Shown: in pieces, positions 12,229 to 34,448 of the stretch
Position numbering within the stretch: the stretch's first letter is position 1
Layout: each line of letters begins with the position of its first letter
Source of the DNA: an uncultured delta proteobacterium
GTDB lineage: Bacteria; Myxococcota_A; Polyangia; Palsa-1104
NCBI GenBank assembly: GCA_963785725.1
Contig: CAWAWS010000016.1
Coordinates: 192,001 to 256,000, forward strand
Direction of reading: 5' to 3'
DNA length: 64,000 bases
Program-made: the position numbers and the translations under genes
Notes under the pieces: model-generated
Told to the model about the DNA's origin: nothing
Databases searched by the model: none
Seen by the model: only the letters and a program-made list of their open reading frames with translations

Positions 12229-13449
12229 TCAGCGACTGAGCGCGAACTGGTTGAAGCCGATCGTCGCCGAGTAGGTGGGCGCGCGCGGCCAGGCCACGAC
12301 ACCCACGACGACCCCGACCGCCAGCGCGCTCACCACCGTCGTCCACAGCCACGGCCGCTGCCACAGCGGCATACGCAAGGCCGGCCGCGCTTCGTCGTCG
12401 ATGCGCTGCTGACGCGGCATCGTCAGCTTCGGCGTCGGCGAAAGCTGCAGCGGCCGCGGGCTCACGATCGCCGGCGCCTCGAGCACCCCCAGCCGCGGCT
12501 CGCCACAGGGCGCGTCGTCGAGCCGCTTGACGAGCGCGGCCGCGCGCACCTCGGTCACGACCGCGCTCGCGCAGCGCGTCTGCAGCCGCTGCGCCGCGTA
12601 GGTCAGCGTGCCACCGTCGAGGCTGACGGCCGCCACGAAGACGGCGTCGACGCCGAGCGCCGCGCGCGCCGCCGCCACGCCGTCGACGCTCGGGCGCGCC
12701 GTCAAGCCGGCGATGGCCGCGGCCGCGCCGTCGCCGGCGGGCGCCTCCAGCGTCACGGTCGCGCCCGCCGCCGGCACGTCGACGAGCCGCGCGACGCCAT
12801 CGGCACGCACGAGATGCTCACCGACGGCAACGCCGACCGCCACGCCATTTTCGTGCGCATGCCCATCGATCGTAAACGCCGTCGTCGCCGTCACCGTCAG
12901 CGGCGCCGTCTTCGGCGTACGCGGCTTGACCGCGAGCAAAAAGGCGCGCGCCGCGTCCGGCCGCACCATCGCCTCGGTCAACTCCGTCGCCGGCTCGAGC
13001 GCCACCGCCCGTCGCCAGGCGCGCTCGGCCTCGCCGCGCCGGCCGAGCTCGAGCAGCGCCACGCCGCGCCACAGCGCCGCCGTCGCCGCTTCGGCCGCGA
13101 CGCCCGGTCGGGCCAGCTCGGGCGCGTACGCCGCTTCGGCCGCGCTCAATTCGCTCTCGGCGCGCGCCAGCTCCACGCGCGTCAACGCCTGCCGCCCCTC
13201 CGCGACGTGCGCTTGAGCACGCGCGAAGAAGGCGAGCTCGCCGCGATCGACCCAGCCGCCCGCCTGCGCCGCCGTCGCCGCGGCCACGGTGCGCTCGAGA
13301 TCCTCGGCGACGACTTCGGCACCGCTCGCCCTGACGGCGGCCACGAGCGCGCGCTCGGCCTCCGCTCGCCGCGCCGCCGCCCCGCCCGAGTCGGGCGCGT
13401 AGACCATGACCGCCACGGTCAACAGAAAGTGCACGCCCGACGATATCAC
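12229..13449 (-). CDS. Exported/membrane TPR-containing protein
   Basis: Hydrophobic N-terminus, TPR-like ALWRGVALLELGRRGEAERAWRRAVALEP, C-terminal TM after PLWQRPWLW. Confidence 0.65.
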   Translation of the reverse strand: MISSGVHFLLTVAVMVYAPDSGGAAARRAEAERALVAAVRASGAEVVAEDLERTVAAATAAQAGGWVDRGELAFFARAQAHVAEGRQALTRVELARAESELSAAEAAYAPELARPGVAAEAATAALWRGVALLELGRRGEAERAWRRAVALEPATELTEAMVRPDAARAFLLAVKPRTPKTAPLTVTATTAFTIDGHAHENGVAVGVAVGEHLVRADGVARLVDVPAAGATVTLEAPAGDGAAAAIAGLTARPSVDGVAAARAALGVDAVFVAAVSLDGGTLTYAAQRLQTRCASAVVTEVRAAALVKRLDDAPCGEPRLGVLEAPAIVSPRPLQLSPTPKLTMPRQQRIDDEARPALRMPLWQRPWLWTTVVSALAVGVVVGVVAWPRAPTYSATIGFNQFALSR

Positions 13450-13467
13450 GCGCTATGATCGACGACC

Positions 13468-14730
13468 ATGGAGCGCCCTCGCCTGCGTCCGTTGGAAGCC
13501 TTCCCCATCGACAAGCCGGGACAGAAGCTGCTCGGCCTGCGCGACCCGTCGGGGCTGACCGACTCGGTGGCGACGCTGCCGCCGGCCGCCGTCGCCGTCG
13601 TGCAGCTGTGCGACGGCGACACGACGCGCGACGAGATCTGCGCCGAGTTCTTCCGCCGCTACGGCTCGCCGCTCGCGCGCGCGCGACGCTCGATCGGCTG
13701 CTCGAGCAGCTCGACGACGCCTATCTGCTCGACTCGCGAGCGCTTTCGCAACCACTCGGCGTCGCTCTTCGGCGAGTTCGCGCGCTCGCCGGTTCGCGCC
13801 CGCGCATGCTGGCCGGCAAGAGCTATCCCGGCGACGCCGGCCAAGCTCGCCGGCGAGCTCGACGCGCTACTTCGCGCCGCCGCGCGGTCCCGGGCAAGCC
13901 GAGCGACGCTGCGACCGCTGCCGCGCGCCATCATCGCGCCGCACATCGACTTCGCGCGCGGCGGGCCGGCCTACGCGTGGGCCTATCGCCGCTCGCGCAA
14001 GCGTCGCGGGCGGCCCGAGCTGGTCGTCGTCTTCGGCACCGATCACAACGGCGCCGAGCAGCCGTTCACGCTCACGCGCAAGCACTACGAAACGCCGCTC
14101 GGCGCAGTGCGACACCGACGTCGCGCTCGTCGACCAGCTGGTCGCGCGCTACGACGAGCAGCCGGGCCGGCGCCGTCGCAGGCGCTCTTCAAGCGACGAG
14201 TATCATCATCGCGGCGAGCACTCGATCGAGTTCCAGATGGTGTGGCTGCGCCATATCTGGGAGCGCGCGCTGACGTCGATCAAGGTGCTGCCGATCCTGT
14301 GCGGCTCGCTGCAGGACTTCATCGACTCGGCGCGCGATCCCGCGCTGCCGATCGCTGTCGCGTCTTCTTCGCGACGCTCGACGACGAGCGTGGCCGGGCG
14401 GCAAGCGCGCCTGTGGATCGCCGGCGCCGATCTGGCGCACGTCGGCCCGCGCTTCGGCGACAAGGAGCCGCTCGACGACGACGACGCGACGTCGCTCGAG
14501 AAGTCGCGATCAGGCAGACACTGCGTCGCCTGCGCCGCGGCGACGCCGCCGCCTGGTTCGAAGAGCTGCGCAAAGAGCGCGATCGCCGTCGCGTCTGCGG
14601 TTTACCGCCGATCTTCGCCATGCTCGAGTGCGCCCAGCCGGGCACGGGCGAGCTCGCCGTTTACGCGCAGTGCCCCGCCGACGAGTCCGGCGGATCGCTC
14701 GTGTCGATTGCTTCACTCGTCTATCGCTAG
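13468..14730 (+). CDS. MEMO1 / AmmeMemoRadiSam system protein B family with N-terminal extension; several indels
   Basis: IIAPHIDFARGG, VFGTDH, EHSIEFQMVWL, ADLAHVGPRFGD and VCGLPPI are distributed over three frames. Confidence 0.8.
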   Translation: MERPRLRPLEAFPIDKPGQKLLGLRDPSGLTDSVATLPPAAVAVVQLCDGDTTRDEICAEFFRRYGSPLARARRSIGCSSSSTTPICSTRERFRNHSASLFGEFARSPVRARACWPARAIPATPAKLAGELDALLRAAARSRASRATLRPLPRAIIAPHIDFARGGPAYAWAYRRSRKRRGRPELVVVFGTDHNGAEQPFTLTRKHYETPLGAVRHRRRARRPAGRALRRAAGPAPSQALFKRRVSSSRRALDRVPDGVAAPYLGARADVDQGAADPVRLAAGLHRLGARSRAADRCRVFFATLDDERGRAASAPVDRRRRSGARRPALRRQGAARRRRRDVAREVAIRQTLRRLRRGDAAAWFEELRKERDRRRVCGLPPIFAMLECAQPGTGELAVYAQCPADESGGSLVSIASLVYR

Positions 14731-21045: not shown

Positions 21046-22836
21046 ATGCAAATTCGCGATCGACCCAAGGCCGGAGCGTGGTTGGGCTTCGCCTTGAGTG
21101 TCCTGTTCGCGTCGGTGCTGGTCCCGCTGACCACGTTCGAGCTGTGGCAGGACCGCGCCGTCGACGCCGCCGGCCGCGCCGTCTTCACGGTGCGCTTGCC
21201 GGAGATGGGCGTCTGGCGCGACACGCTCGTCGGCAGCCGCTTCGAGCATCGGCGCGTGCTCGTGCCGCGCGGCGAATTGGTGGACGCGGCCGAGCGGCGG
21301 CTCATCAACGCCTACGAAATCGGGCGCCGGCCGCCGTCGCTGGGCCTGCTGCTCGGTCTGGCGATCGCCTACTTCATGCTGGGCATGCTGCTCACGTCGT
21401 ATCTGCGCAACTTCGGTTATCGCGGACGACGATTACGCACGCAGATCGTCATGCTCGCCTGTCTCGTCGCCGCGGCGGCGATCTACAAGGCGTACCTGCT
21501 GCTGACGCCCTACCCCGCCTATTGGCTGCCGATTGGCGCGTTCTCGATCGCGGTCGCCGTTCATCATGACCGGCAGGTCGCCTTCGCGGGCACCGTGGCT
21601 TTGTCGTTCCTGGTCGGCTCGCTCATCCCGTTCGATCTCGGTCTGGCGCTGGTGCTACTGCTGCAAGGCTTTGGCGCCATCATGTTCTTGAGCCACCCGC
21701 GGCGTTGGTGGGGCTTGGTGACGGCCGGGCTCGGCGGCGGCATGCTGGCTGCGCTCGGCTACCTCGCGCTCTACTGCCTCGTGCGCGGCCGCCTGCCTGA
21801 CGAGGACACGGCGTCGCTGATGACGTCGGGCTTGGCCGGCGCGTTCGGCGGCGGCGTCGCGGCGGGCCTGCTCGCCATCGTCGTCGCGCCGCTGCTCGAG
21901 CGCGCGCTCGGCGAGGTCTCGCGCACGACGCTGCTCGAGCTGACCGATCTGAATCACCCGCTGCTCAAGCGCATCGCCACGGCCTCGCCGGGAACGTGGG
22001 CGCACTCGCTGGCGATGGCGAACATGGCCGAGCTCGCCGCCACGGCGATCGGCGCCAATGCGCTGCTGACCCGCGTCGGCGCCTACTTTCACGATCTCGG
22101 CAAGTCGTCGGCGCCGCAGTATTACATCGAGAACTTGCACGCCGGCGAGCCCTCGCCGCACGACGCGCTCGATCCCGACGTCTCGGCCGACGCCATCTTC
22201 GCCCACTGTACCGAGGGTGTGCGGCTCGGACGCGGCGCGGGAATTCCCGAGCCGGTGCTCGACTTCATGCACATGCATCACGGCAACGGGCTGCTCGAGT
22301 ACTTCTGGCACAAGAATCAGGAGCTGGGGAACCCGAAGCGCCTGTCGGAGAAGGCGTTCCGCTATCCGGGCCTGCCGCCGCAGACGAAAGAGACGGCGAT
22401 TTTGGCGATCTGCGACGCGGTCGAAGCGGCCTCGCGCACGCTCAAGCAGCCGGCGGAGCGCGATCTGACGAACCTCGTGCAGCGCATCGTGTTCGGAAAG
22501 CTGCGCTTGGGTCAGCTCGATCAGTCGGGGCTGACGTCGGCCGACCTGAAGGCGCTGTGCAACTCGCTCGTCGACACGCTGAAGAACTCGTTCCACGTGC
22601 GCATCGAGTATCCGTGGCAGAAGGAAGAGCGCGCGGCGCAGGCCGCCGAAGCGGCCGCGCAAGCCGCCGCCGCGCCTGCCGAGGCCGGCGGACAAGCGGA
22701 TGCGACGGCGCACCCGAGCGTCGAAGCGCCCGGGCCGACCATCACGCAGCGGCTGTTCGTCGAAGAGCGGCTGGACTCGGCCGATTCACCGCGGCCGAAT
22801 CCCGAAGCCAAAGCTGCGAAGACTAAAGTTTCGTAA
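21046..22836 (+). CDS. 7TM-HD (HDIG) membrane phosphohydrolase, PgpH-like
   Basis: About 7-8 hydrophobic segments, then LLELTDLNHPLL, PGTWAHS, FHDLGK, H, HHG, FRYPG, ICDAVEAASR. Confidence 0.88.
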   Translation: MQIRDRPKAGAWLGFALSVLFASVLVPLTTFELWQDRAVDAAGRAVFTVRLPEMGVWRDTLVGSRFEHRRVLVPRGELVDAAERRLINAYEIGRRPPSLGLLLGLAIAYFMLGMLLTSYLRNFGYRGRRLRTQIVMLACLVAAAAIYKAYLLLTPYPAYWLPIGAFSIAVAVHHDRQVAFAGTVALSFLVGSLIPFDLGLALVLLLQGFGAIMFLSHPRRWWGLVTAGLGGGMLAALGYLALYCLVRGRLPDEDTASLMTSGLAGAFGGGVAAGLLAIVVAPLLERALGEVSRTTLLELTDLNHPLLKRIATASPGTWAHSLAMANMAELAATAIGANALLTRVGAYFHDLGKSSAPQYYIENLHAGEPSPHDALDPDVSADAIFAHCTEGVRLGRGAGIPEPVLDFMHMHHGNGLLEYFWHKNQELGNPKRLSEKAFRYPGLPPQTKETAILAICDAVEAASRTLKQPAERDLTNLVQRIVFGKLRLGQLDQSGLTSADLKALCNSLVDTLKNSFHVRIEYPWQKEERAAQAAEAAAQAAAAPAEAGGQADATAHPSVEAPGPTITQRLFVEERLDSADSPRPNPEAKAAKTKVS

Positions 22837-23107
22837 AGCCGGCGCCGCCGAGCTTGTGGCGCGACTCGGCGCCGCCGAACTTGAAGCCGACGACCTGATC
22901 GGCGCTGAAGTAATAGCGCTCGCCCTTGTGGGTCAAGAACACGACTTCGCTGCCGATCTCGATGCGCGAGATGCGCGCGATCTGCAGCGTCTCTTGGCCG
23001 AGCGAGATGTAGGCGTTGGCCTCGACCTCCTCGGGAAACACGTAGCCGTTGCCGTCCTTCTTCACCATCGGGGCGGTCGTCAGGACTTTTTCGATCGATA
23101 GCGCCAT
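22823..23107 (-). CDS. Small hypothetical protein (94 aa)
   Basis: Good codon bias, protein-like composition; TATTGT lies 6 nt upstream of the ATG. Confidence 0.75.
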   Translation of the reverse strand: MALSIEKVLTTAPMVKKDGNGYVFPEEVEANAYISLGQETLQIARISRIEIGSEVVFLTHKGERYYFSADQVVGFKFGGAESRHKLGGAGFTKL

Positions 23108-23465
23108 GGGGCGACAATAAGGCGGAACCCAGCGCGCGTCCAGCAGCCGCGCACGCCCGCGATTGGCGCGTATTTACGGATACGAATCGCGCCAACCGAC
23201 GTCCGGCGCTACTTTGCATGTGTCGTTCGCAGAAGTTCGCTCGACACGCGAGCTAGCCGAGCTGAATCGCGCTCAGCCGCATGGGACGGCAACTTGCGCG
23301 ATCGGGGCCGATCGAGCGCGTGGCCCAGCGCGTTGCAACGGACGGATATCCCCAGGGTGTGAATTCCCGTGGGAAACTTTTTCATCATCGCAGTGACCCG
23401 ATCGAGGCGCGCGAAATCGTTGGCGACGGCGGTCAGTTCACAGTTGTGGACAGCCTGTGCGGCGC

Positions 23466-23494
23466 TTGCGTCGGCGGAGGCGCGGTCCTACTCT
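23466..23494 (+). promoter_or_regulatory. Sigma70-like promoter for the putative large ncRNA
   Basis: TTGCGT (23466-71) - 17 nt - TACTCT (23489-94). Predicted +1 near 23501 coincides with the first base of the closing helix. Confidence 0.65.
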
Positions 23495-23500
23495 CATCGA

Positions 23501-24113
23501 GTCGGGCGGTACGACGACGAGCCAAGAACCTCGCAGGGGGATCTCGACCTCGGAAGAGGACGAGACTGTCGGCGGCGAAGCAGACTCTGGAGCGCAGGAC
23601 GCGGGCGACTTTGGCCGCCGGCCTCGAAAGCGCACGAGAGGTGACGCCCAAAAGCGTCCATCGCCACCGGTCGGCAATCCCTCAGGGAGGACACGGCGAC
23701 GGCAGCGGGCCGGCAATCTAAACCGTCGCAGGCAGCGCAGCGTTGACGCAACATCCCACGCACCACGCTGAAAATGCGTGGGGGCGCGGTGGTGGGAAAC
23801 CTCAGGAGAGGCGCCCGTGGAGGCGGGCAAGGCGGCTCGGCAAGGACCCTGAAGGAGGCTGCAACCGCAAGAGAGGATCGCCGACTGGTCAAACGGTCGG
23901 ACGAGGGACGACGAGGGAACACCGCGAAGCGTGGGACGATGTCCGAGCGCATGGCGGGAGCGGCGAAAACCTGAGCCGCTACTTCACGTCCCGATAAGAC
24001 TCTGCAGCGGGCGGTAACTTCACGAGGGGCGCGGCGGCTCACGAGCGATCGGGAGCGCCGGCCGAGTACGCTGAAGTCTCTGGAGAGGCGGCTCGTCGTC
24101 GTGGCGCGCCGGC
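23501..24113 (+). ncRNA. Putative large (~610 nt) structured non-coding RNA, class unassigned
   Basis: Perfect 13-bp pairing ACGACGACGAGCC (23511-23523) / GGCTCGTCGTCGT (24090-24102), extendable to 23501/24113. At least 7 internal helices, repeated motifs, own promoter, no credible ORF. Confidence 0.75.
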
Positions 24114-24136
24114 GTATGCCGGCGTAGACTGCGGGC

Positions 24137-26548
24137 GTGAAGCGCTTGGGCCTCGTCGCTGCGCTGTCGCTGTCCGCACTCTTGTCGCGACGCGCGTCGA
24201 CGGCCGAGCTCTTCTCGAGCCTGGACGCGCTGGCCGGGCAGCTCAAGAACGGCGACTCGGTGCAGCGGCGCGAAGCGGTCGACAAGCTCGACGCCTATGG
24301 TGCCGACGATGCGCGACCGCTCCTCTTGCGCGCGCTCGGCGACAGCGACACCGACGTGCGGGTGCACGCGGCCACGGCCATTGGGCGGCACCATGTCGCC
24401 GAGGCCACGGCCGGGTTGACGGCGGCGCTGGGCGACTCCGATTCGCGCTTGCGGACGAGCGCGGCGGAGGCGCTGGGCCTCGTGCTCGAAGGGCCGGCCG
24501 CGGGCGATCCGCCGGCGACGACCTTGCGCGCGGTCGATGCGCTCGAGCGCGCGCTCGGCGACGGTGAGCACGAGGTGCGCGAGGCCGCGGTGGGCGCGCT
24601 CGGGCGCTTGCCGGCGACGATGGGACGCCGCGCCGCGGTGGCGTTGACCGGTCGGCTCGACGACGAAGCCGCCGGCGTGCGCCAGCGCGCGGCCGAAGTC
24701 TTGGGCCGCATGGGCGAGACGCGCGCGACGGTGCCGCTGTTGGCGCGGCTCGGCGATCCGACGCGTGAGGTGCGCGCGGCGGCGCTCGAGGCGCTGGCGC
24801 TGCTCGGCGATCCGCACGCGGTGCCGGCGATGGTGCGCATGCTGCGCGATCCGGCCGACGACGTGCGCGCGACGGCGGTGACGGCGCTCGGTCGGCTGCG
24901 CGCAGCGACGGCGATTGGGCCGCTCGACGAGACGATGCTGCACGGCCAGCCCGACGCCCTGCGCGTGCGTGCGGCCTATGCGCTCGGTCAAATCGCCAGC
25001 GCTGGCGCCCGCAGCGACAACGCCAGCGCCAACGGTGTCACGGCGGTCGACGCGCTCTTGAGCGCGCTCGGACGCGATGAGCTGAGCGCGGCGGCGAGCG
25101 AAGCCTTGGTGCGCGCCGGCGGCGCGGCGGTTCCGGCGCTGCTGGCGCGGCTGCCCGAGGCGTCGAACGAGCGCGCGACACTGTATCTCGACCTGCTGCG
25201 CCAAATCGGCGACACGCGCGCGACGCCGGCCCTGCTCGACGAATTGGGCCGTGGCCGCATCGGCGAGGAGCCGATCGTCGACGCCTTGGGCGCCATGTTG
25301 CACGCCGGTGACAAGCGGCCGCTCGTCGAGCTGGTGGCGCGGCTGGGTTCGTCGTCACCGTCGCTCAGGCGGCATGCGGCGCTGGCGTTGCAAGGTGTCG
25401 TCGACACGCGGGCGACGGCGGCGTTGACGGCGGCGGCCAGCGACACGGAAGCGCCGGTGCGCCTCATGGCCATCGGCGAGCTCGGTCGGCTCGGCGCGCG
25501 CGACGCCTTGGCGACGCTGGCGCGCGTGCTCGCCAGCGGCGACGACGAGACCGCCGCGGCCGCCGCGCACGCGCTCGGCCAGCTCGACGATCGGCGCGCG
25601 ACCGCCCCGCTCGTCGCCGCGCTCGGCCGACCGGAGCGACGGGTGCGGCGAGAGGCGGCCGACGCGCTGGCGCACCTCGGTGACGCGTCGGTCGCGCCCG
25701 CGATCATGCGCGCCGTGCGCTCGAGCGCGCCCGATTGTCGCGCCGGCGCCATCGTCGCGCTCGGCGGCGTGCTGCGCCATCACAGCGACAGCTCGGCGCG
25801 CGAGCTGCTGCTCGGTTACGCCGAGGGCAGCGACGCCGCGGCGGCGTTGGCCGCCATCGACGCGCTCGGCGCGATGGGCGACGCGACCGCCGCGCCGCGC
25901 CTCGTGCACCTCGTCGACGGTCGCGCCGACACGGGCTTGCGGCAGCGCGCGCTGGCGGCCCTCGGCAACCTCGACAGCGACGACGCCACGCGCACGCTCG
26001 CCGCGATCCTTGCCGCCGACGTCGATCCCCGCCTGCGCGCCGAGGCCGCTTGGGCGCTCGGCAAACGCGCGCGCGCCGCCGCGACGACAACGCCGCTCTT
26101 GACCGCGGCGCTGCAGTCGCCGACGCCGGCCGTGCGCGCGAACGCGGCCGCCGCGCTCTATCGGCTGCAGCGCGCGCCCGGCCTGCTTACGCGCCTCATC
26201 GACGATCGGGATCCGGCCGTGCGTGGCAACGCGGCGCTGGCGCTCGCGCACACGCCGGCTGCGCATGCCGCGCTGGCGCGTCTGGCCGCTGAGGACGACG
26301 ATCGACTGACCCGCGCGGCCGCCAAATCGGCCCTGCAAGCGCATTCACCGGTGACAGGTAACGACTGGATCGCGCTCGATGTCGTCGACTTCGACGGCTC
26401 GCCCTTGAGCGACGCGCGTTACCGCTTGGCGCTGCCCGATGGTCTCGTCAAAGTGGGCGTGACCGATGAACGCGGCGTCGTGACCGAGGAAGCGCTGCCG
26501 ACCGGCGGCTGCGCGCTCGTGCTCGACGAAGCCGCGGCCGCGCGCTAG
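24137..26548 (+). CDS. Exported HEAT/PBS-lyase repeat protein (803 aa)
   Basis: Signal peptide; about 20 repeats of L-x-D-x-D-xx-VR-xx-AA-x-ALG. Confidence 0.9.
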   Translation: MKRLGLVAALSLSALLSRRASTAELFSSLDALAGQLKNGDSVQRREAVDKLDAYGADDARPLLLRALGDSDTDVRVHAATAIGRHHVAEATAGLTAALGDSDSRLRTSAAEALGLVLEGPAAGDPPATTLRAVDALERALGDGEHEVREAAVGALGRLPATMGRRAAVALTGRLDDEAAGVRQRAAEVLGRMGETRATVPLLARLGDPTREVRAAALEALALLGDPHAVPAMVRMLRDPADDVRATAVTALGRLRAATAIGPLDETMLHGQPDALRVRAAYALGQIASAGARSDNASANGVTAVDALLSALGRDELSAAASEALVRAGGAAVPALLARLPEASNERATLYLDLLRQIGDTRATPALLDELGRGRIGEEPIVDALGAMLHAGDKRPLVELVARLGSSSPSLRRHAALALQGVVDTRATAALTAAASDTEAPVRLMAIGELGRLGARDALATLARVLASGDDETAAAAAHALGQLDDRRATAPLVAALGRPERRVRREAADALAHLGDASVAPAIMRAVRSSAPDCRAGAIVALGGVLRHHSDSSARELLLGYAEGSDAAAALAAIDALGAMGDATAAPRLVHLVDGRADTGLRQRALAALGNLDSDDATRTLAAILAADVDPRLRAEAAWALGKRARAAATTTPLLTAALQSPTPAVRANAAAALYRLQRAPGLLTRLIDDRDPAVRGNAALALAHTPAAHAALARLAAEDDDRLTRAAAKSALQAHSPVTGNDWIALDVVDFDGSPLSDARYRLALPDGLVKVGVTDERGVVTEEALPTGGCALVLDEAAAAR

Positions 26549-27778: not shown

Positions 27779-27820
27779 CGTGTCATTTCAGCGAGTTAAC
27801 CAGCGGTCGCTGCCAATCTG

Positions 27821-29332
27821 TCAGTGGCTGCCGAGCAGATGTGGCAATGCGTCGACGAGGTCGCCGGCCATGAGGCCGGTCTGGCTGCGCGCGGCGGCGG
27901 CGAAGTCGCCGGCCGCGCCGTGCAAGTAGACGGCGGCGCAGGTGGCGGCGAAGGCGTCGGTGCGCGTCTCCGCGCCTTTGCCGCTCGTGCGCGCCAAGGC
28001 GGCGGCGACGACGCCGGTCAAGACGTCGCCGGTGCCGCCCGTTCCGATGCCCGGATTGCCGGTCGGGTTGATGGCGAGGCGGCCGTCGGGCGACGCGATG
28101 ACGGTGCGCTCGCCCTTCAAGACGCAGATGGCGCCGTAGTGCTCGGCGATGGCGCGCGCCGAGCCGATGCGATCGGCCTGCACGGCTTCGGTGTCGCGTC
28201 CGAGGAGCCGCGAGGCTTCGCCGGGATGCGGCGTCAGCACCGTCGGCGCCGCGCGCTTCGGCAAGAGCGACGGCTGCGCGGCCAAGAGCGTCAGCGCGTC
28301 GGCGTCGACGACGAGCTGCAGCTCCGACGCGCCCAGCTCACGCAAGCGCGCCTTGGCGAGGTCGTCGCGACCGATGCCGGGGCCGATGGCGAGCGCGCGT
28401 TTGCCCTCGATCAGCGCCGCGAGCTCGCCCTTGTCTGCCGCTCAAGCGCTCGATCATGAGCTCGGGAATGCGGCCCTCGACGATGTCGGCGGCGTCGCTC
28501 GACATGGCGACGGTGCACAGGCCGGCGCCGCTGCGTAAGACGGCGCTGCCGCACAGGAGCGCCGCGCCCGTCTTGCCGCGTGAGCCGGCGACGACGAGGA
28601 CGTGGCCGTGCGTGCCTTTGTGGCCGCCGGCTTCGCGGACGCGCAGCGGATCGAAGATGCGCGGCGTCGAGCAGCTCGGCTTTGACGCCGCGGGCGCGCG
28701 CCAGCCGCTCGGGAATGCCGATGTCGTGCACGTGCAGCTTGCCGACGAGCGGCAGCGCGCCGGCGCCGACGAGGCCGAGCTTGGCGAACGCGAACGTGAT
28801 CGTGTGATCGGCGCGCACCGACGGGCCGATGATGCCGCGATCGGCGTCGACGCCCGACGGCACGTCGACGGCGAACACCGGGCCGCGATGGGCGCGCATG
28901 CGGGCGATGGCGTCGCGCGCGCCGCCGGCCTCGACCGGTCGCGACAGGCCGGTGCCGAAGAGCGCGTCGACGACGATGTCGTTGCGATGGAGCAGCGCGG
29001 CCGGCGCGTCGGCGATCTTCACGCCCGAGCGCTCGGCGGCGTCGAAGCAGGTGCGCGCATCGCCCGCGATCTTGCCGCGCTCACCGACGAGCGCGATGGT
29101 CACTTCGGCGCCGCGCGCGTGCAGATGGCGAGCGACGACGAAGCCATCGCCGCCGTTGTTGCCGGTGCCGCAGAAGGCGACGACGCGCGCCTTGGCTAAT
29201 GTCGCTGTGCGCGCAGATGACGTCGACGACGCCGCGGCCGGCCGATTCCATCAAGACCACGCCGGGAACGCCTAGAACGTCGATGGTTTCGCGATCGAGC
29301 GCGCGCATTTCGGCAGCGGTGACGAGCAACAT
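27821..29332 (-). CDS. nnr: Bifunctional NAD(P)H-hydrate epimerase/dehydratase (YjeF); several indels
   Basis: [61 protein letters not shown] spread over several frames. Confidence 0.88.
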
Positions 29333-29336
29333 GCGG

Positions 29337-29708
29337 TCAGCTTTCCGCGACGACGAAGGCCATGGCCGAGTCGTCCGCGTGGGTGATCGACAGGTGCAGC
29401 TTACGAATTCCCGCGCGCGTCGCCGCCGCCGCGGCGTTGCCGCTCAGGCGAAACGACGGCGCCCCACCCGCTTCGTTGACGACCTCGAGCTCGTGCCAGC
29501 GCAAGCCTTCGGGCACGCCCAGCGCCTTCAAGAGCGCCTCTTTGGCGGCGAAACGGGCGGCGAAGTGCTGCCCCGAGTTGGCGCGCGCGCGGCAATAGGC
29601 CCGCTCGGCGTCGGTAAACAGCCGCGCCTCCAGCCGCTCGGGATGCGCGTCGAACGCCCGCTGCATGCGACTGATGGGCGTCAGATCGACTCCCACGCCG
29701 ACGATCAC
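29337..29708 (-). CDS. acpS: Holo-[acyl-carrier-protein] synthase
   Basis: [29 protein letters not shown]. Confidence 0.95.
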
Positions 29709-30461
29709 GCGCGCACGGCTCCGCGGCCGCGATCGATGGCGGCGCGCATTTCGCGGACGGCGCGCTCCATGCCGACGAGCACGGCGCGCGCGACGATGGC
29801 GTGACCGATGTTGAGCTCCTCGATCTCGGCGATGGCCGCGACGGCGCCGACGTTCAGATAATCGAGCCCATGGCCGGCGGCGACGTGCAGGCCGAGCTCG
29901 GCGCCGCGCGTGGCCGCGCGATGAATGCGCGCCAGCTCGGCGTCGCCGGGCGCGTGGTCGATCGGACGCACGCGCTCGCAGTAATCACCGGTGTGCAGCT
30001 CGACGCGCGGCGCCCCGAGCTGCTTCGACGCCTGCACCGCCTCCTCCGACGGATCGATGAAGAGGCTGACTTGGATGCCGTCCGCCATGAGCCGCTCGAT
30101 GGCGCGGCCGACGGCGCTGTCGCCTTGGCCGCGGGCGCCGAGGACATCGAGCCCGCCTTCGGTCGTCCGCTCTTGGCGCTTTTCGGGCACCAGCGACACG
30201 ATGTCGGGCTTCACCTCGCGGGCGATCGCCACCATCTCGTCGGTCGCCGCCATCTCCAGGTTCAATGCGCCGCGCACCGTCTGCCGCAAGAGCCGGACGT
30301 CGCGATCTTGAATATGGCGACGATCTTCGCGCAGATGCACGGTGATGCCGTCGGCGCCGGCGAGCTCGACGAGCGGCGCGGCCCACAGCGGATCGGGATA
30401 GCGTCGTGCCGCGCGCCTGCCTGAGCGTCGCCACGTGGTCGATGTTGACGTGCAGCTTCAT
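29705..30461 (-). CDS. pdxJ: Pyridoxine 5'-phosphate synthase; indel near 30380-30400
   Basis: [57 protein letters not shown]. Confidence 0.93.
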
Positions 30462-31012
30462 CAGTAGGTCCATACTCCGCAAGTGGTCGCCGGCGCGCAC
30501 TGACCGGCGACGAAGCCGTCGTAGCAGCAGTCGGTGGCGACGCATTCGTGGTTCGTGCCGCTGGCGCAGCTGTCGCTGCAGGTGCAGAAGCCGGGCGGCG
30601 GCGGCGTGGGCGCGGTCGAGCCGGCGCAGCTGCCGTTGACACAGCTGACGCCGTCGGGACAGGTGACGCCGCAGCCGCCGCAGTTGCGAATGTCGCTGCC
30701 GAGGCTGATGCAGCCGTTGCTGCCGCAGCAGGTCTGGCCGGTGCCGCAGATGTCGCCGAAGGGCGGGCAGCCGCACTTGCCGCCGATGCAGATGTCCCCG
30801 TCGGGACAGACGGTGCCGCAGGCGCCGCAATTGCGCGGGTCGCGGCCGATGTCGATGCAGGCCGTGCCGCAGCACGTAAGGCCACAGGCTTGGCCGTTGA
30901 GCATGCAGGTGCCGCCGTCGCCGGAGGATTTGTCGCCGCTGCGGCTGCTGAGACCGCAGCCGGCGACCGTTAGCGACAGGAGAACGCCGAGAACGACAGA
31001 GATGCGCGCCAC
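30461..31012 (-). CDS. Cys-rich lipoprotein with Stig1/myxobacterial Cys-repeat units
   Basis: Lipobox VAGC; two C-x-D/S-x3-D-x-RNCGxCGxxC units; more than 25 Cys in ~183 aa. Confidence 0.8.
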
Positions 31013-31043
31013 GCGGCGACGGTAACGCCACGCGCGGCTGGGA

Positions 31044-32444
31044 TCAAGCCGCGCCGCAGGCCTGCTCGAGCGCGTGCGCGATCTCGTCGGCGTAGCCGCG
31101 AATGACGCACCTCGTCCGGCCCTTCGACCATGACGCGCGCCTTGTGCTCGGTGCCCGAGTAGCGCACGAGCACGCGCCCATCGGTGCCGAGCGTCTGCTC
31201 GACGCGGGCGATGAGCGCGTTGACCGTCGCCAATTCGCCGAGCGGCCGCTTCTCCTTGACCTTGAAGTTCACCAGCACCTGCGGATAGCGCGTCATCACG
31301 CGGCGCAGCTCCGACAGCGGCTTGCCGCTCTCCAACATCACCGCCAGCACCTGCAGCGCGCCGAGGACGCCGTCGCCCGTCGTCATGTGATCGAGGAAGA
31401 CCAAGTGGCCCGACTGCTCGCCGCCGAAGTTGTAGCCGTTGGCGCGCATCTCCTCGACGACGTAGCGATCGCCGACCTGCACGCGCGCCAGTTTGCCGCC
31501 CATCTTCGTCGATCGAGCGCTCGAGACCGAGGTTCGACATCACCGTCGCCACCAGCGTCTTGTGCTTGAGCTCGTCGCGCTCGATCATGCGGCGCGCGCA
31601 CATGGCCATGATGGTGTCGCCGTCGACCTCGTCGCCGTGCTCGTCGCAGATGATGACGCGGTCGGCGTCACCGTCGAGGGCGATGCCGAGCTGCGCGCCG
31701 CGACTTGACGACCGCTTGCTGCAGCTTCTGCGGATGGAGCGCGCCGCAGTCGTCGTTGATGTTGGTGCCGTCGGGGCGAATGCCGAGCGCGATGACGTCG
31801 GCGCCGAGCTCGCTGAAGACGGCGGGCGCGACTTTGTAGGCGGCGCCGTTGGCGCAATCGACGACGATGCTTCAGGCCCTCGAGCGTCAAATGGCGCGGA
31901 AACACGCTCTTCAAGAACACGACGTAGCGGCCGCGCGAGTCTTCGATCTTCGTCGCCTTGCCGATGTCGGCGCCGTGCGGGCGGTTGCGATCGAGCTCGT
32001 CCGGAGGCCATCAAGTCCTCGAGGTGCGCCTCGAGCTCGTCGGGCAGTTTGAACCCGTCGGCGGCGAAGATCTTGATGCCGTTGTCCTCGATACGGGTTG
32101 TGTGAGGCCGAGATGACGACGCCGGCGTCGGCGCGCATCGACGACGTGATGAAGGCGATGCCGGGCGTCGGCAAGCGGGCCGCAGAGCATGACGTCGGCG
32201 CCCATCGAGCAGATGCCGGAGGCCAAGCGCGGTCTCGAACAGATAGCCCGATAGGCGCGTGTCCTTGCCGATGACGATGCGACCGCGACCGCTCTTGTGC
32301 TTCGAGCGAAAGTGGTAGGCGACGGCGCGTCCGAGCCGCAGCGCCATCTCGGGCGTCATCGGATCGTACGTTGGCGACGCCACGAACGCCGTCGGTGCCG
32401 AAGAGTTGGCGTTTGGCGGGCGGGGCTTTATCGGCAGCGGACAT
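31044..32444 (-). CDS. glmM: Phosphoglucosamine mutase; multiple indels
   Basis: [62 protein letters not shown] across frames. Confidence 0.93.
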
Positions 32445-32461
32445 GGGCTCCTCGGGCGTGG

Positions 32462-33392
32462 TCAGTCGTGCTTGCGACGGGTTATAAGCATGGTCGTGTC
32501 CGGCTGCACCTCGGCCGCGACGCCCGCCGGCAATCCGGTGACGGTGATATTGCGAACGTAGCGCGCCGGCGGCCGCGTATCGACGAGCGCCGCGTCGACC
32601 TGCAGCCCCGGCTCGCCCAAGCCCTTGAGCAGCACCGACGGACCGCGCAGGATGAGCCGGCCGGCCGCCGGATCGACGGTCCCCTCCAGCCGCGTCAGGC
32701 CGGTCACCGTGATCGGCACGGCGTCGAAGCTGCGCTCGACCATCGCCGGCATGATCTCGGCCGTCACGGTCACCGCCGTCGCGTCGACGAAGCGCGTATG
32801 CAAGGGCGGCGGCTCGAGCGCGGCGCTGCCTTCGACCGGCCCGTGCGCATCGGCCACGCGCAAGGGCCGCGTGGGCGCGCGCAGCATGGCGTCGACCGCG
32901 CTCTTGGCGCCGTCGATGCGCACGTGCGCCGGCGCGGCCGTCACTTTGGCGACGCGATAGCCCTCGCCCGGCTCGCCTTCGAGGATCGGCTGCACCGGGA
33001 TCTCGCGCGTCGCCCGCGGCTCGGTCGCGACATGCACCTCCGACGGCACGATCGACGCCACGCGCACGCCCGCCGGCACTTTGATCATGTCCTCGTCGAG
33101 GCGCACGTCGGGCGTCTGTACGCGGGTCAGGTCGATATGGATCGGCTCGAGCGCGCGATCGAGCCGCTGCAGCTTGCTCCACGGCCCGCGCACGCCCACT
33201 TTGACCTCGAGCGGCGGATCGGACACGAGCACGCGATCTTCGGGCAGCGTGTACACGACCTTGACGTAGGCGCCCGACGACGGCGTCCTTGTCGTTGCGC
33301 ACGAGCATGAACAGCGTCAACGCCAGCACCATCGACAGCACCTTGATCGGCAGCTCGTCGACGAATACGCGAACGAAAAAGGGGCGCGCCAT
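32462..33392 (-). CDS. cdaR: CdaR/YbbR-like regulator; indel near 33275
   Basis: N-terminal [17 protein letters not shown]; YbbR-like V-x-V-x-G-P repeats and G-x-P-x-EGY; lies between cdaA and glmM. Confidence 0.8.
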
Positions 33393-33395
33393 CGG

Positions 33396-34448
33396 CTAGG
33401 ACTCGGCCGTCTTGGCCGCCTCGCGCGCGGCGGCGCGACCCTCGTCGCGATTCTCGTCGTGGGCGCCGGCGCCGGCGTCACGCGCGTCGGCGGCGTCGGC
33501 GGCGCCGCTGGCTCGCTCGCGCGTCGGCGCGGCGGCGTCGGCATCGGCTTCGACGCGCGCGGTGGCGAGCGGATCGGCCTCTTCCGGCGGCTGCGGACGC
33601 TCGAACGGCAGCGCCTCGAGCGCCGTCGGCACTTCGCGCTCCTTCGGCTTCGGCGTCGCTTTGCGCTTCTGCTTCTGGAAGAGGCCGAGCAGCGCCTTAC
33701 GCAGCGTCGGCGAGTCGAGATCGCGGGCGATGTTGCCGCCGAAGCACAGCGAAATCGAGCCGCGCTCCTCGGACACCACGACGACCACCGCGTCCGTCTC
33801 CTCGGTCACGCCGATGGCCGCGCGATGACGCGTGCCGAGCGCCTTGTCGAGCCGCGCGTTGGCCGACAGCGGCAACACCGCGCCCGCCTGCGCGATGCGC
33901 AGGTTCTTGATGATGACCGCGCCGTCGTGCAGCTTGTTCTCGGAGTCGGGCAGGAACAGCGAAACCAGCAGCTCCTCGGACACCTTGGCGTCCATCTCGA
34001 CGCCCGACTCGTTCAGGTAGTCGACCAGATCGGCGTCGCGCTCGAGCACGATGAGCGCGCCGACGCGCGAGGTCGCCAGCCGCTCCGTCGCCTTGATGAC
34101 CTCTTCGAACACCGAGGTCTGCTCGTACGGTCGCGCATAGATGAACAGGTTCTGGCCGACGCGCATGAGCCCGCGGCGAATGTCATGCTGGAAGATGACG
34201 ATGAAGAAGATGATCGAATAATTGATCAGGTTATCGAGCAGCCAAGACAGCGTCGTCAGCTCGAGCAGCTTGGCCGCGAAGAAGCCGGCACCGACGAGCA
34301 CGATGCCGATCAGCATCTGCGCCGCGCGCGTGCCTTTGATGAGCAAGAGCGTGCGATAGATGACGTAGTAGACGATGAGGATGTCGAAGGCTGCCGTCAG
34401 CCACTCGCGCACCGTCAGGCTATGCAAGAGCGACTTCAGCGCGTGCAC
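33396..34448 (-). CDS. cdaA: Diadenylate cyclase CdaA
   Basis: Three N-terminal TMs, IFQHDIRRGL, GALIVLER, LHDGAVII, LGTRHRAAIG, VVSEERG. Confidence 0.95.
   Translation of the reverse strand: MHALKSLLHSLTVREWLTAAFDILIVYYVIYRTLLLIKGTRAAQMLIGIVLVGAGFFAAKLLELTTLSWLLDNLINYSIIFFIVIFQHDIRRGLMRVGQNLFIYARPYEQTSVFEEVIKATERLATSRVGALIVLERDADLVDYLNESGVEMDAKVSEELLVSLFLPDSENKLHDGAVIIKNLRIAQAGAVLPLSANARLDKALGTRHRAAIGVTEETDAVVVVVSEERGSISLCFGGNIARDLDSPTLRKALLGLFQKQKRKATPKPKEREVPTALEALPFERPQPPEEADPLATARVEADADAAAPTRERASGAADAADARDAGAGAHDENRDEGRAAAREAAKTAES

Follow-up and report, generated by a model that had tools for sequence, protein, structure and literature searches.

A conserved 613-nt bacterial RNA with six predicted copies of one internal-loop module, and the wider family to which it belongs

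We identified a conserved 613-nt non-coding RNA in the window (the whole 64,000-nt stretch of DNA that was analysed), whose predicted fold holds six copies of one module, a 3x3 internal loop in which 5'-GNA-3' faces 5'-ANG-3' between two 4-bp helices. The analysis established its conservation, its non-coding pattern of change, the covariation of its fold, its presence in RNA libraries and the existence of a wider family in four phyla. We regard the feature as real and the family as a new large ornate RNA family with a new recurrent loop; no description of it was found in the literature covered, which lay largely outside subscription journals and outside supplementary candidate lists, where an earlier listing is possible. 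With its six predicted joints, each consisting of a 4-bp helix, the GNA/ANG loop and a second 4-bp helix, the RNA may be a rigid and possibly self-assembling scaffold, a reading to which we give an even chance.

To our knowledge, the large bacterial RNA classes described so far are few, and several of them proved to form RNA-only particles. The present family is as large as or larger than the known classes, spans four phyla, is represented by RNA-sized environmental contigs and is absent from Rfam 15. Its module is a new recurrent RNA motif for which nature supplies hundreds of variants, with joint purine exchanges and an inversion among them. Searches of Rfam 15 (4,227 families) by gathering threshold and by E-value gave no match for the window RNA, with two chance hits at E-values up to 10. 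The family members searched gave none in L025, in 15 sources or, except for rRNA pieces, in a set of 7 sources.

The RNA locus and evidence of transcription

The RNA gene is intergenic (Table 1). Its upstream neighbour is a divergent ORF of 94 aa (22823-23107, minus strand), whose product matched no Pfam or NCBIfam family, and a HEAT-repeat gene on the same strand as the RNA (24137-26548) begins 23 nt 3' of it. Gene neighbours are constant across all genus members, in which one or two RNA copies occur per genome; the 94-aa ORF stays next to the RNA throughout the genus. The RNA is present in 4/4 same-genus genomes at 75-77% identity, two metagenome contigs extend this set, and a BLAST search of 61 genomes found full-length copies confined to the genus. 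One further match (R1, genome G011, E 0.027) lay inside coding sequence and was discarded. A protein-coding reading of the RNA was rejected, as indels of 1, 2, 19 and 20 nt break the frame in 6/6 homologs. The plus strand was inferred because of the promoter and because it folds better (-310 vs -284 kcal/mol for the minus strand), the contigs described below carrying no strand information. Several genes at 13400-14700 and 27800-33400 of the window are split over more than one frame in a manner that resembles long-read indel error, and single-base differences in the window RNA hence need caution.

Table 1. Features of the RNA and of its upstream region, in window coordinates
Feature	Position	Strand	Evidence or remark
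9-mer taken to be DnaA-box-like, 5' of promoter	23445-23453	+	one mismatch in this genome; TGTGGA core at the same place in relatives
Predicted sigma-70-type promoter, TTGCGT / 17 nt / TACTCT	23466-23494	+	conservation in 5/5 genomes
Non-coding RNA gene	23501-24113	+	fold z -6.8; homologs; frameshifting indels; covariation; RNA-library contigs
Terminal helix, 5' arm	23501-23523	+	pairs with 24090-24113; all 22 pairs formed in 100% of cells; 18 invariant
Module 1 A strand, loop GCA	23529-23539	+	partner 23680-23690
Module 2 A strand, loop GGA	23585-23595	+	partner 23630-23640
Module 2 B strand, loop ACG	23630-23640	+	consensus fold
Module 1 B strand, loop AGG	23680-23690	+	least conserved loop strand; CGG in 4/7
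Hairpin loop with CUAA, conserved	23718-23724	+	alignment; present in long forms too
Hairpin, UGAAAAU loop, invariant; not a module strand	23766-23778	+	alignment
Module 3 B strand, loop AGG	23800-23810	+	partner 24078-24088; outermost pair broken in 6/7
Module 4 A strand, loop GAA	23847-23857	+	partner 24018-24028
Module 5 B strand, loop AAG	23865-23875	+	partner 24000-24010; in G001 both facing A are changed to G
Module 6 A strand, loop GAA	23922-23932	+	partner 23947-23957; absent from the sequence-only reading
Module 6 B strand, loop AUG	23947-23957	+	consensus fold
Hairpin with 10-nt loop, after module 6	23959-23980	+	counterpart at the same place in long forms
Module 5 A strand, loop GCA	24000-24010	+	consensus fold
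Module 4 B strand, loop ACG	24018-24028	+	consensus fold
Hairpin tip, GCGA tetraloop	24042-24051	+	GNRA (mostly GUGA or GCGA) at this place family-wide
Module 3 A strand, loop GGA	24078-24088	+	consensus fold; absent from the sequence-only reading
Terminal helix, 3' arm	24090-24113	+	consensus fold/alignment; pairs with 23501-23523

The promoter is called from conservation, TTGC, TA and the final T of the second hexamer being invariant in 5/5 genomes (TTGC-17-TANNNT), since a consensus scan for promoters and terminators at the RNA locus returned 0 sites and the conserved promoter scores under its threshold. Metatranscriptome contigs cover the RNA in 8/8 runs examined, drawn from eight studies, with identity of up to 99%; such contigs cannot show strand, level or true RNA ends. 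They start at 23512-23516, that is, 11-15 nt inside the predicted start, and, as contigs lack true ends, this shared start within the terminal helix gives a weak hint of a processed or trimmed 5' end. No joints within the RNA were found in the contigs of the eight runs, in which contig cover of the flanking genes was absent or scattered and not informative on relative expression. Contigs of another form of the family, type 1 (L119, L134), start about 9 nt inside their own predicted RNA start.

The 9-mer upstream of the promoter, which we take to be DnaA-box-like, has counterparts within 350 nt upstream of 12/36 family loci under a strict pattern (among them L271, L272, L282, L281, L270, L107 and L124), compared with 0.001 per 350 nt genome-wide in the source genome (G000). 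These 9-mers may link transcription to replication or may merely mark AT-richer intergenic DNA.

Predicted fold and rules of the repeated module

The consensus fold of a seven-sequence alignment comprises 208 pairs with 95.6% of cells paired. Double changes occur at 37/208 pairs, against 13.4 in shuffles (0/500 as high) and 2-10 in slid controls, and unconstrained RNAalifold recovered 47/48 module pairs. The modules are mostly nested and long-range, with two in the 5' domain and four nested in the 3' domain. Most module helices are invariant within the genus, so that their pairing is tested only via the distant forms.

The sequence-only reading had described two short motifs, A and B, repeated along this stretch, and every string it named was found where it had been placed. 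Within 23500-24115, the motif-B core has four copies against a mean of 0.25 in dinucleotide shuffles (0/2000 reached 4) and motif A as written has five against 0.12 (0/2000 reached 5). Because the patterns were picked after viewing the sequence, these figures overstate the enrichment, and conservation in homologs is the better test: across 7/7 aligned homologs, the four core B strands at 23630, 23800, 23865 and 24018 hardly vary, and neither do the strands with which they pair. Homologs and consensus fold thus uphold a repeated module within a large structured RNA, though in a different form from the one proposed. Motifs A and B are indeed repeated and do pair with each other, but as opposite strands of a single 3x3 internal loop rather than as free-standing elements, and what had been described as motif B followed by a hairpin is an internal loop inside nested helices. 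The presumed motif-B variant at 23527-41 is an A-type strand, and ACGCTGAA, taken for motif A at 23765-72 and 24068-75, falls in a hairpin loop and in a junction strand, respectively, neither of which is a module strand. Three local A-then-B pairings had also been suggested; that of 23582 with 23628 stands, while in the remaining two the strands exchange partners (23847 with 24018, 23865 with 24000). One A strand (24078-88) and the entire sixth module had been overlooked.

In the predicted folds of 70 family RNAs, 307/372 3x3 loops carry the GNA/ANG motif, compared with 8/106 in 70 shuffles, up to one of the 307 per RNA being imposed by the search pattern. The form best sampled, type 1, has ten modules whose helices are 93-100% paired, and its consensus (1,035 columns, 28 sequences, with L200 and L205 excluded from the fold as outliers) shows covariation at 88/333 pairs. 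The type-1 module consensus reads CNCU[GNA]GNNN facing NNNC[ANG]AGNG, the middle being any base pair or mismatch. Base preferences differ by module position, the second pair being C-G, U-A or G-C depending on the module, as expected of tertiary contacts. Measured over 227 loops, module arms are exactly 4 bp, and an unpaired A is found six places before the A strand in 87% and both four and five places before the B strand in about 80%. The step next to the loop is usually CU/AG.

The purines that face each other on the G-C side of the loop switch jointly. The folding-based count (n=284, from related and hence not independent sequences) gives A-A in 227 cases, G-G in 47, A-G in 4, G-A in 3 and other combinations in 3. 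A joint change from A-A to G-G with so few mixed pairs (7/284) is expected of a symmetric purine pair, a geometry that we infer. The type-1 alignment gives a weaker signal at this position (A-A 392, G-G 7, G-A 6), and the G-G pair on the other side of the loop is near-fixed (399/405). The same double change is found within the genus, in the relative G001. Type 1 has module 1 in the order B-then-A, type 2 and the window RNA have it as A-then-B, and GNG/GNG intermediates occur in other lineages; the loop thus behaves as pseudo-symmetric.

Members and distribution of the family

A search with a model of the 5' domain led to a relative of about 945 nt in another genus. One two-strand pattern yielded 40 genome loci and at least 120 distinct metagenome loci (estimate, about 500 stretches), and profiles confirmed 34/40 genome loci and 118/120 of the metagenome loci listed. 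The genome loci L109, L112, L115, L126, L131 and L138 and the metagenome loci L187 and L235, which had no profile support, were set aside as chance. By taxon, the 34 genome loci comprise 19 from Myxococcota or Deltaproteobacteria, 7 from Gemmatimonadota, 4 from Planctomycetota, 3 from Eisenbacteria and 1 from another bacterium; as the genomes are mostly metagenome-assembled, single assignments may be binning errors, L107 being from a whole chromosome. A profile that combines 30 unrelated contigs of about 1,030 nt matches the 3' domain of the window RNA (E 6e-8).

The window RNA is the smallest member seen, and closed forms measure 770-1,080 nt. Many metagenome contigs of the family are RNA-sized with paired ends, 18/29 type-1 contigs share their start base, and in L206 the RNA is fused to out-of-order 23S pieces; from these features together, the RNA-sized contigs probably come from RNA libraries. 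L206 had been considered as an intron in 23S and was rejected as an out-of-order rRNA chimera, and a second match in L161, considered as a tandem copy, proved to be a chimeric tail.

Within the order, the family is patchily spread, being found in 13/42 genomes (besides G000, 9/14 in the taxonomic family f1, 3/4 in f2 and 0/23 in f3). It occurs in 9/51 genomes of the class of G061 and in at least 3/401 genomes of the phylum, the latter a lower bound from one exact pattern. Scans of viral sequences gave 0, 1 and 67 loci, with a 2.2-kb contig (L025/L044) as the sole clear member (1/67 in the loose scan); this contig resembles the Planctomycetota form and may be host DNA. A neighbour survey of 42 loci found no protein common to more than 9/42 and no universal partner gene, and the genes downstream of the RNA vary by lineage. 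A PhoH2-like gene (NCBIfam NF053827, under the cut-off) lies a few hundred bases upstream at 9/42 loci from two phyla (L100, L107, L108, L117, L118, L124, L132, L137 and L198). Additional copies were observed in three places: copies in tandem, 84% identical, flank an acetyltransferase-like ORF in L121, G010 has two tandem copies (L269/L281), and G300 has copies on two contigs (L264/L267).

Each of the genomes G001-G004 holds a second family match elsewhere. The second copies examined, in G001, G002 and G003, are about 945 nt long and 71-72% identical to the RNA of G012. This paralog (L271, L272, L282) sits between an amidohydrolase-like gene and purF, as named from translations, the next gene being either purF or a gene on the other strand. 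In G000, the paralog-flanking genes are adjacent, about 100 bases apart and with the RNA absent (contig C5, 265130-265260), and one family copy only was found, that of the window. Since relatives carry the extra copy of about 945 nt, missing from G000 at that locus, the window RNA appears on sequence comparison to be a reduced paralog and the sole copy in this assembly.

Candidate roles of the module and relation to known RNAs

As an architectural joint, each module would set the angle between helices and receive adenines from loops and junctions, resulting in a rigid folded scaffold. The outer loop pairs (G-G on one side, A-A or G-G on the other) would be symmetric purine pairs in trans Watson-Crick geometry, putting a kink in the backbone and making the groove wider, and the A-rich linkers 4-7 nt before the strands, along with the GNRA hairpin and the UGAAAAU hairpin, which is presumably T-loop-like, may dock on the CU/AG side of the module. 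The RNA would then act in trans as a free-standing particle, possibly a multimeric one. A-A and G-G trans W:W pairs are described in 10.1101/098723 as isosteric and as producing a sharp backbone turn, GUGA loops are described in PMC3494683 as docking on AG/CU receptors, and large RNAs of similar size form, according to PMC12286853, RNA-only multimers through A-minor contacts. We favour the architectural joint on account of the fixed arms and A-linkers, the position-specific sequence, the conserved GUGA/GCGA hairpin together with the CU/AG steps, and the lack of a co-located partner gene. Counted against it are the inversion of module 1 and the variable number of modules, which a fixed architecture should tolerate less readily than an array of protein sites, as well as the lack of kissing-loop covariation, the genus-invariant helices and the weaker alignment-based A-A/G-G signal.

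The module could instead be a repeated site for one protein, in a multivalent sponge or an assembly scaffold, where the purine pairs would make the major groove wider so that a basic helix can enter, on the model of stem IIB of the HIV RRE; we hold this to be possible but rather unlikely, and it is compatible with the scaffold reading. In stem IIB, G48-G71 and G47-A73 are described as widening the groove (PMC4488727), and A-A/G-G exchange is tolerated, according to 10.1101/098723, where only the backbone is read, as at the Rev site. The module undergoes the same exchange, keeps its G-G side nearly invariant, varies in number with one inversion and gives no kissing-loop signal. It shares with the RRE site, and with the purine-purine trans W:W sharp-turn motif, a purine-rich internal loop in which G-G is replaceable by A-A, but it is symmetric (3x3), its two homopurine pairs enclose a free N-N, and it recurs within a bacterial RNA. 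However, no candidate protein accompanies the RNA from locus to locus, the PhoH2-like gene being upstream at a minority of loci, and both the position-specific sequence and the fixed A-linkers are signs of RNA contacts. We consider it improbable that the modules are pockets for a small ligand or metal in a multi-aptamer leader or store, which may regulate the downstream HEAT-repeat gene. That gene lies on the same strand, a terminator scan found none in between, and the module strands are, as we take it, loosely like those of the glycine riboswitch; against this, no Rfam riboswitch matched at E-values up to 10, genes and gene functions downstream are not constant between lineages, the ~945-nt paralog is followed by purF or an opposite-strand gene, and contigs of the family are in many cases units the size of an RNA whose ends pair. 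A glycine or other riboswitch was accordingly rejected.

The chance that the RNA is a selfish or mobile element, whether intron-like, retro-element-like or a viroid-like circle, seems to us very small. Its patchy spread, the tandem copies in L121 and G010 and the clean absence of the long copy from G000 fit such an element, as does L194, in which a 123-nt terminal repeat (1-123, 973-1095) joins the 3' end to the 5' end across the terminal helix and which is either a circle or a reverse-transcription artefact. However, this repeat was seen in 1/78 contigs, genus neighbours and copy number are stable, the RNA has its own predicted promoter, and RNA contigs of 8 runs hold no joints. Neither reverse transcriptase, nuclease nor transposase is among the 22 largest neighbour clusters listed, and one clear member stood among the 67 loci of the loose viral scan. 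Group I and II introns, ribozymes and viroid-like RNAs were rejected in view of the intergenic location, the lack of an Rfam intron or ribozyme match and the rarity of the repeat. A CsrA/RsmA sponge, raised by the sequence-only reading because GGA is frequent, is hardly credible. The RNA does contain 20 GGA triplets, some loops read AGGA, and CsrB and RsmZ likewise repeat a short motif many times within a single RNA, but neither GGA (20 vs 19.8) nor ANGGA (5 vs 4.3) exceeds its count in shuffles. The motif here is two-stranded and internal, with a free middle base, a dispensable GGA and GGAs in internal rather than hairpin loops, and csrA was found neither in G000 (88% complete) nor in 4/5 other carriers (present in 1/5).

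With OLE (577 nt), ROOL (550-600 nt) and GOLLD (700-830 nt; PMC12990946, Table 1), the window RNA shares a large, free-standing, many-junction bacterial architecture with covarying helices and conserved A-rich junctions, as these are described in PMC12286853. The large many-junction fold with covariation was found here as well. However, the covariance models of these three classes in Rfam matched neither the window RNA nor the family members searched, the family occurs in other phyla, one loop is repeated six to ten times, and no oapA-like partner gene adjoins. A mutual-information scan of 51 type-1 sequences, a small set, found no convincing non-nested helix of the pseudoknot or kissing-loop kind, whereas such contacts are described in PMC12286853 as covarying in OLE, ROOL and GOLLD. 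Divergent RNase P, SRP or 6S RNA was rejected because canonical genes score above cut-off elsewhere in G000. A divergent tmRNA was likewise rejected: ARAGORN found no tRNA or tmRNA, and no tRNA-like domain, in the window, and canonical tmRNA is present in 4/5 other carriers. Neither G000 (88% complete) nor G001 yielded a tmRNA gene, although G003 and G012 each have one.

A kink-turn is defined by tandem G-A/A-G pairs after a 3-nt bulge. Like the module, it is a recurrent purine-rich loop able to bend RNA and bind protein; unlike it, the module is symmetric (3x3) and without tandem G-A pairs. The A that follows the module loop forms a Watson-Crick pair and changes to G when its partner changes, the closing U-A becoming C-G in 47/48 sequences at module M7, and the kink-turn reading was rejected because this A pairs and becomes G opposite C.

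More broadly, and somewhat short of an even chance, the family may be an overlooked class of abundant RNAs of 0.6-1.7 kb, carried by bacteria from soil and sediment that belong to four phyla. Such RNAs would be modular polymers of a single new 3D motif, pseudo-symmetric and open to addition, loss or inversion, and would either assemble into an RNA particle or gather one protein in six to ten copies or more.

As the smallest member seen, the 613-nt copy should be the most convenient one for transcription, probing and imaging, through which the scaffold and protein-site readings can be tested directly. At the other end of the size range, contigs of 1,600-1,760 nt with shared ends suggest longer members, and L141, L171, L180, L190, L191, L173 and L213, of 1.6-2.8 kb with shared or complementary ends, hold the 3' core of the family and are possibly much longer members.
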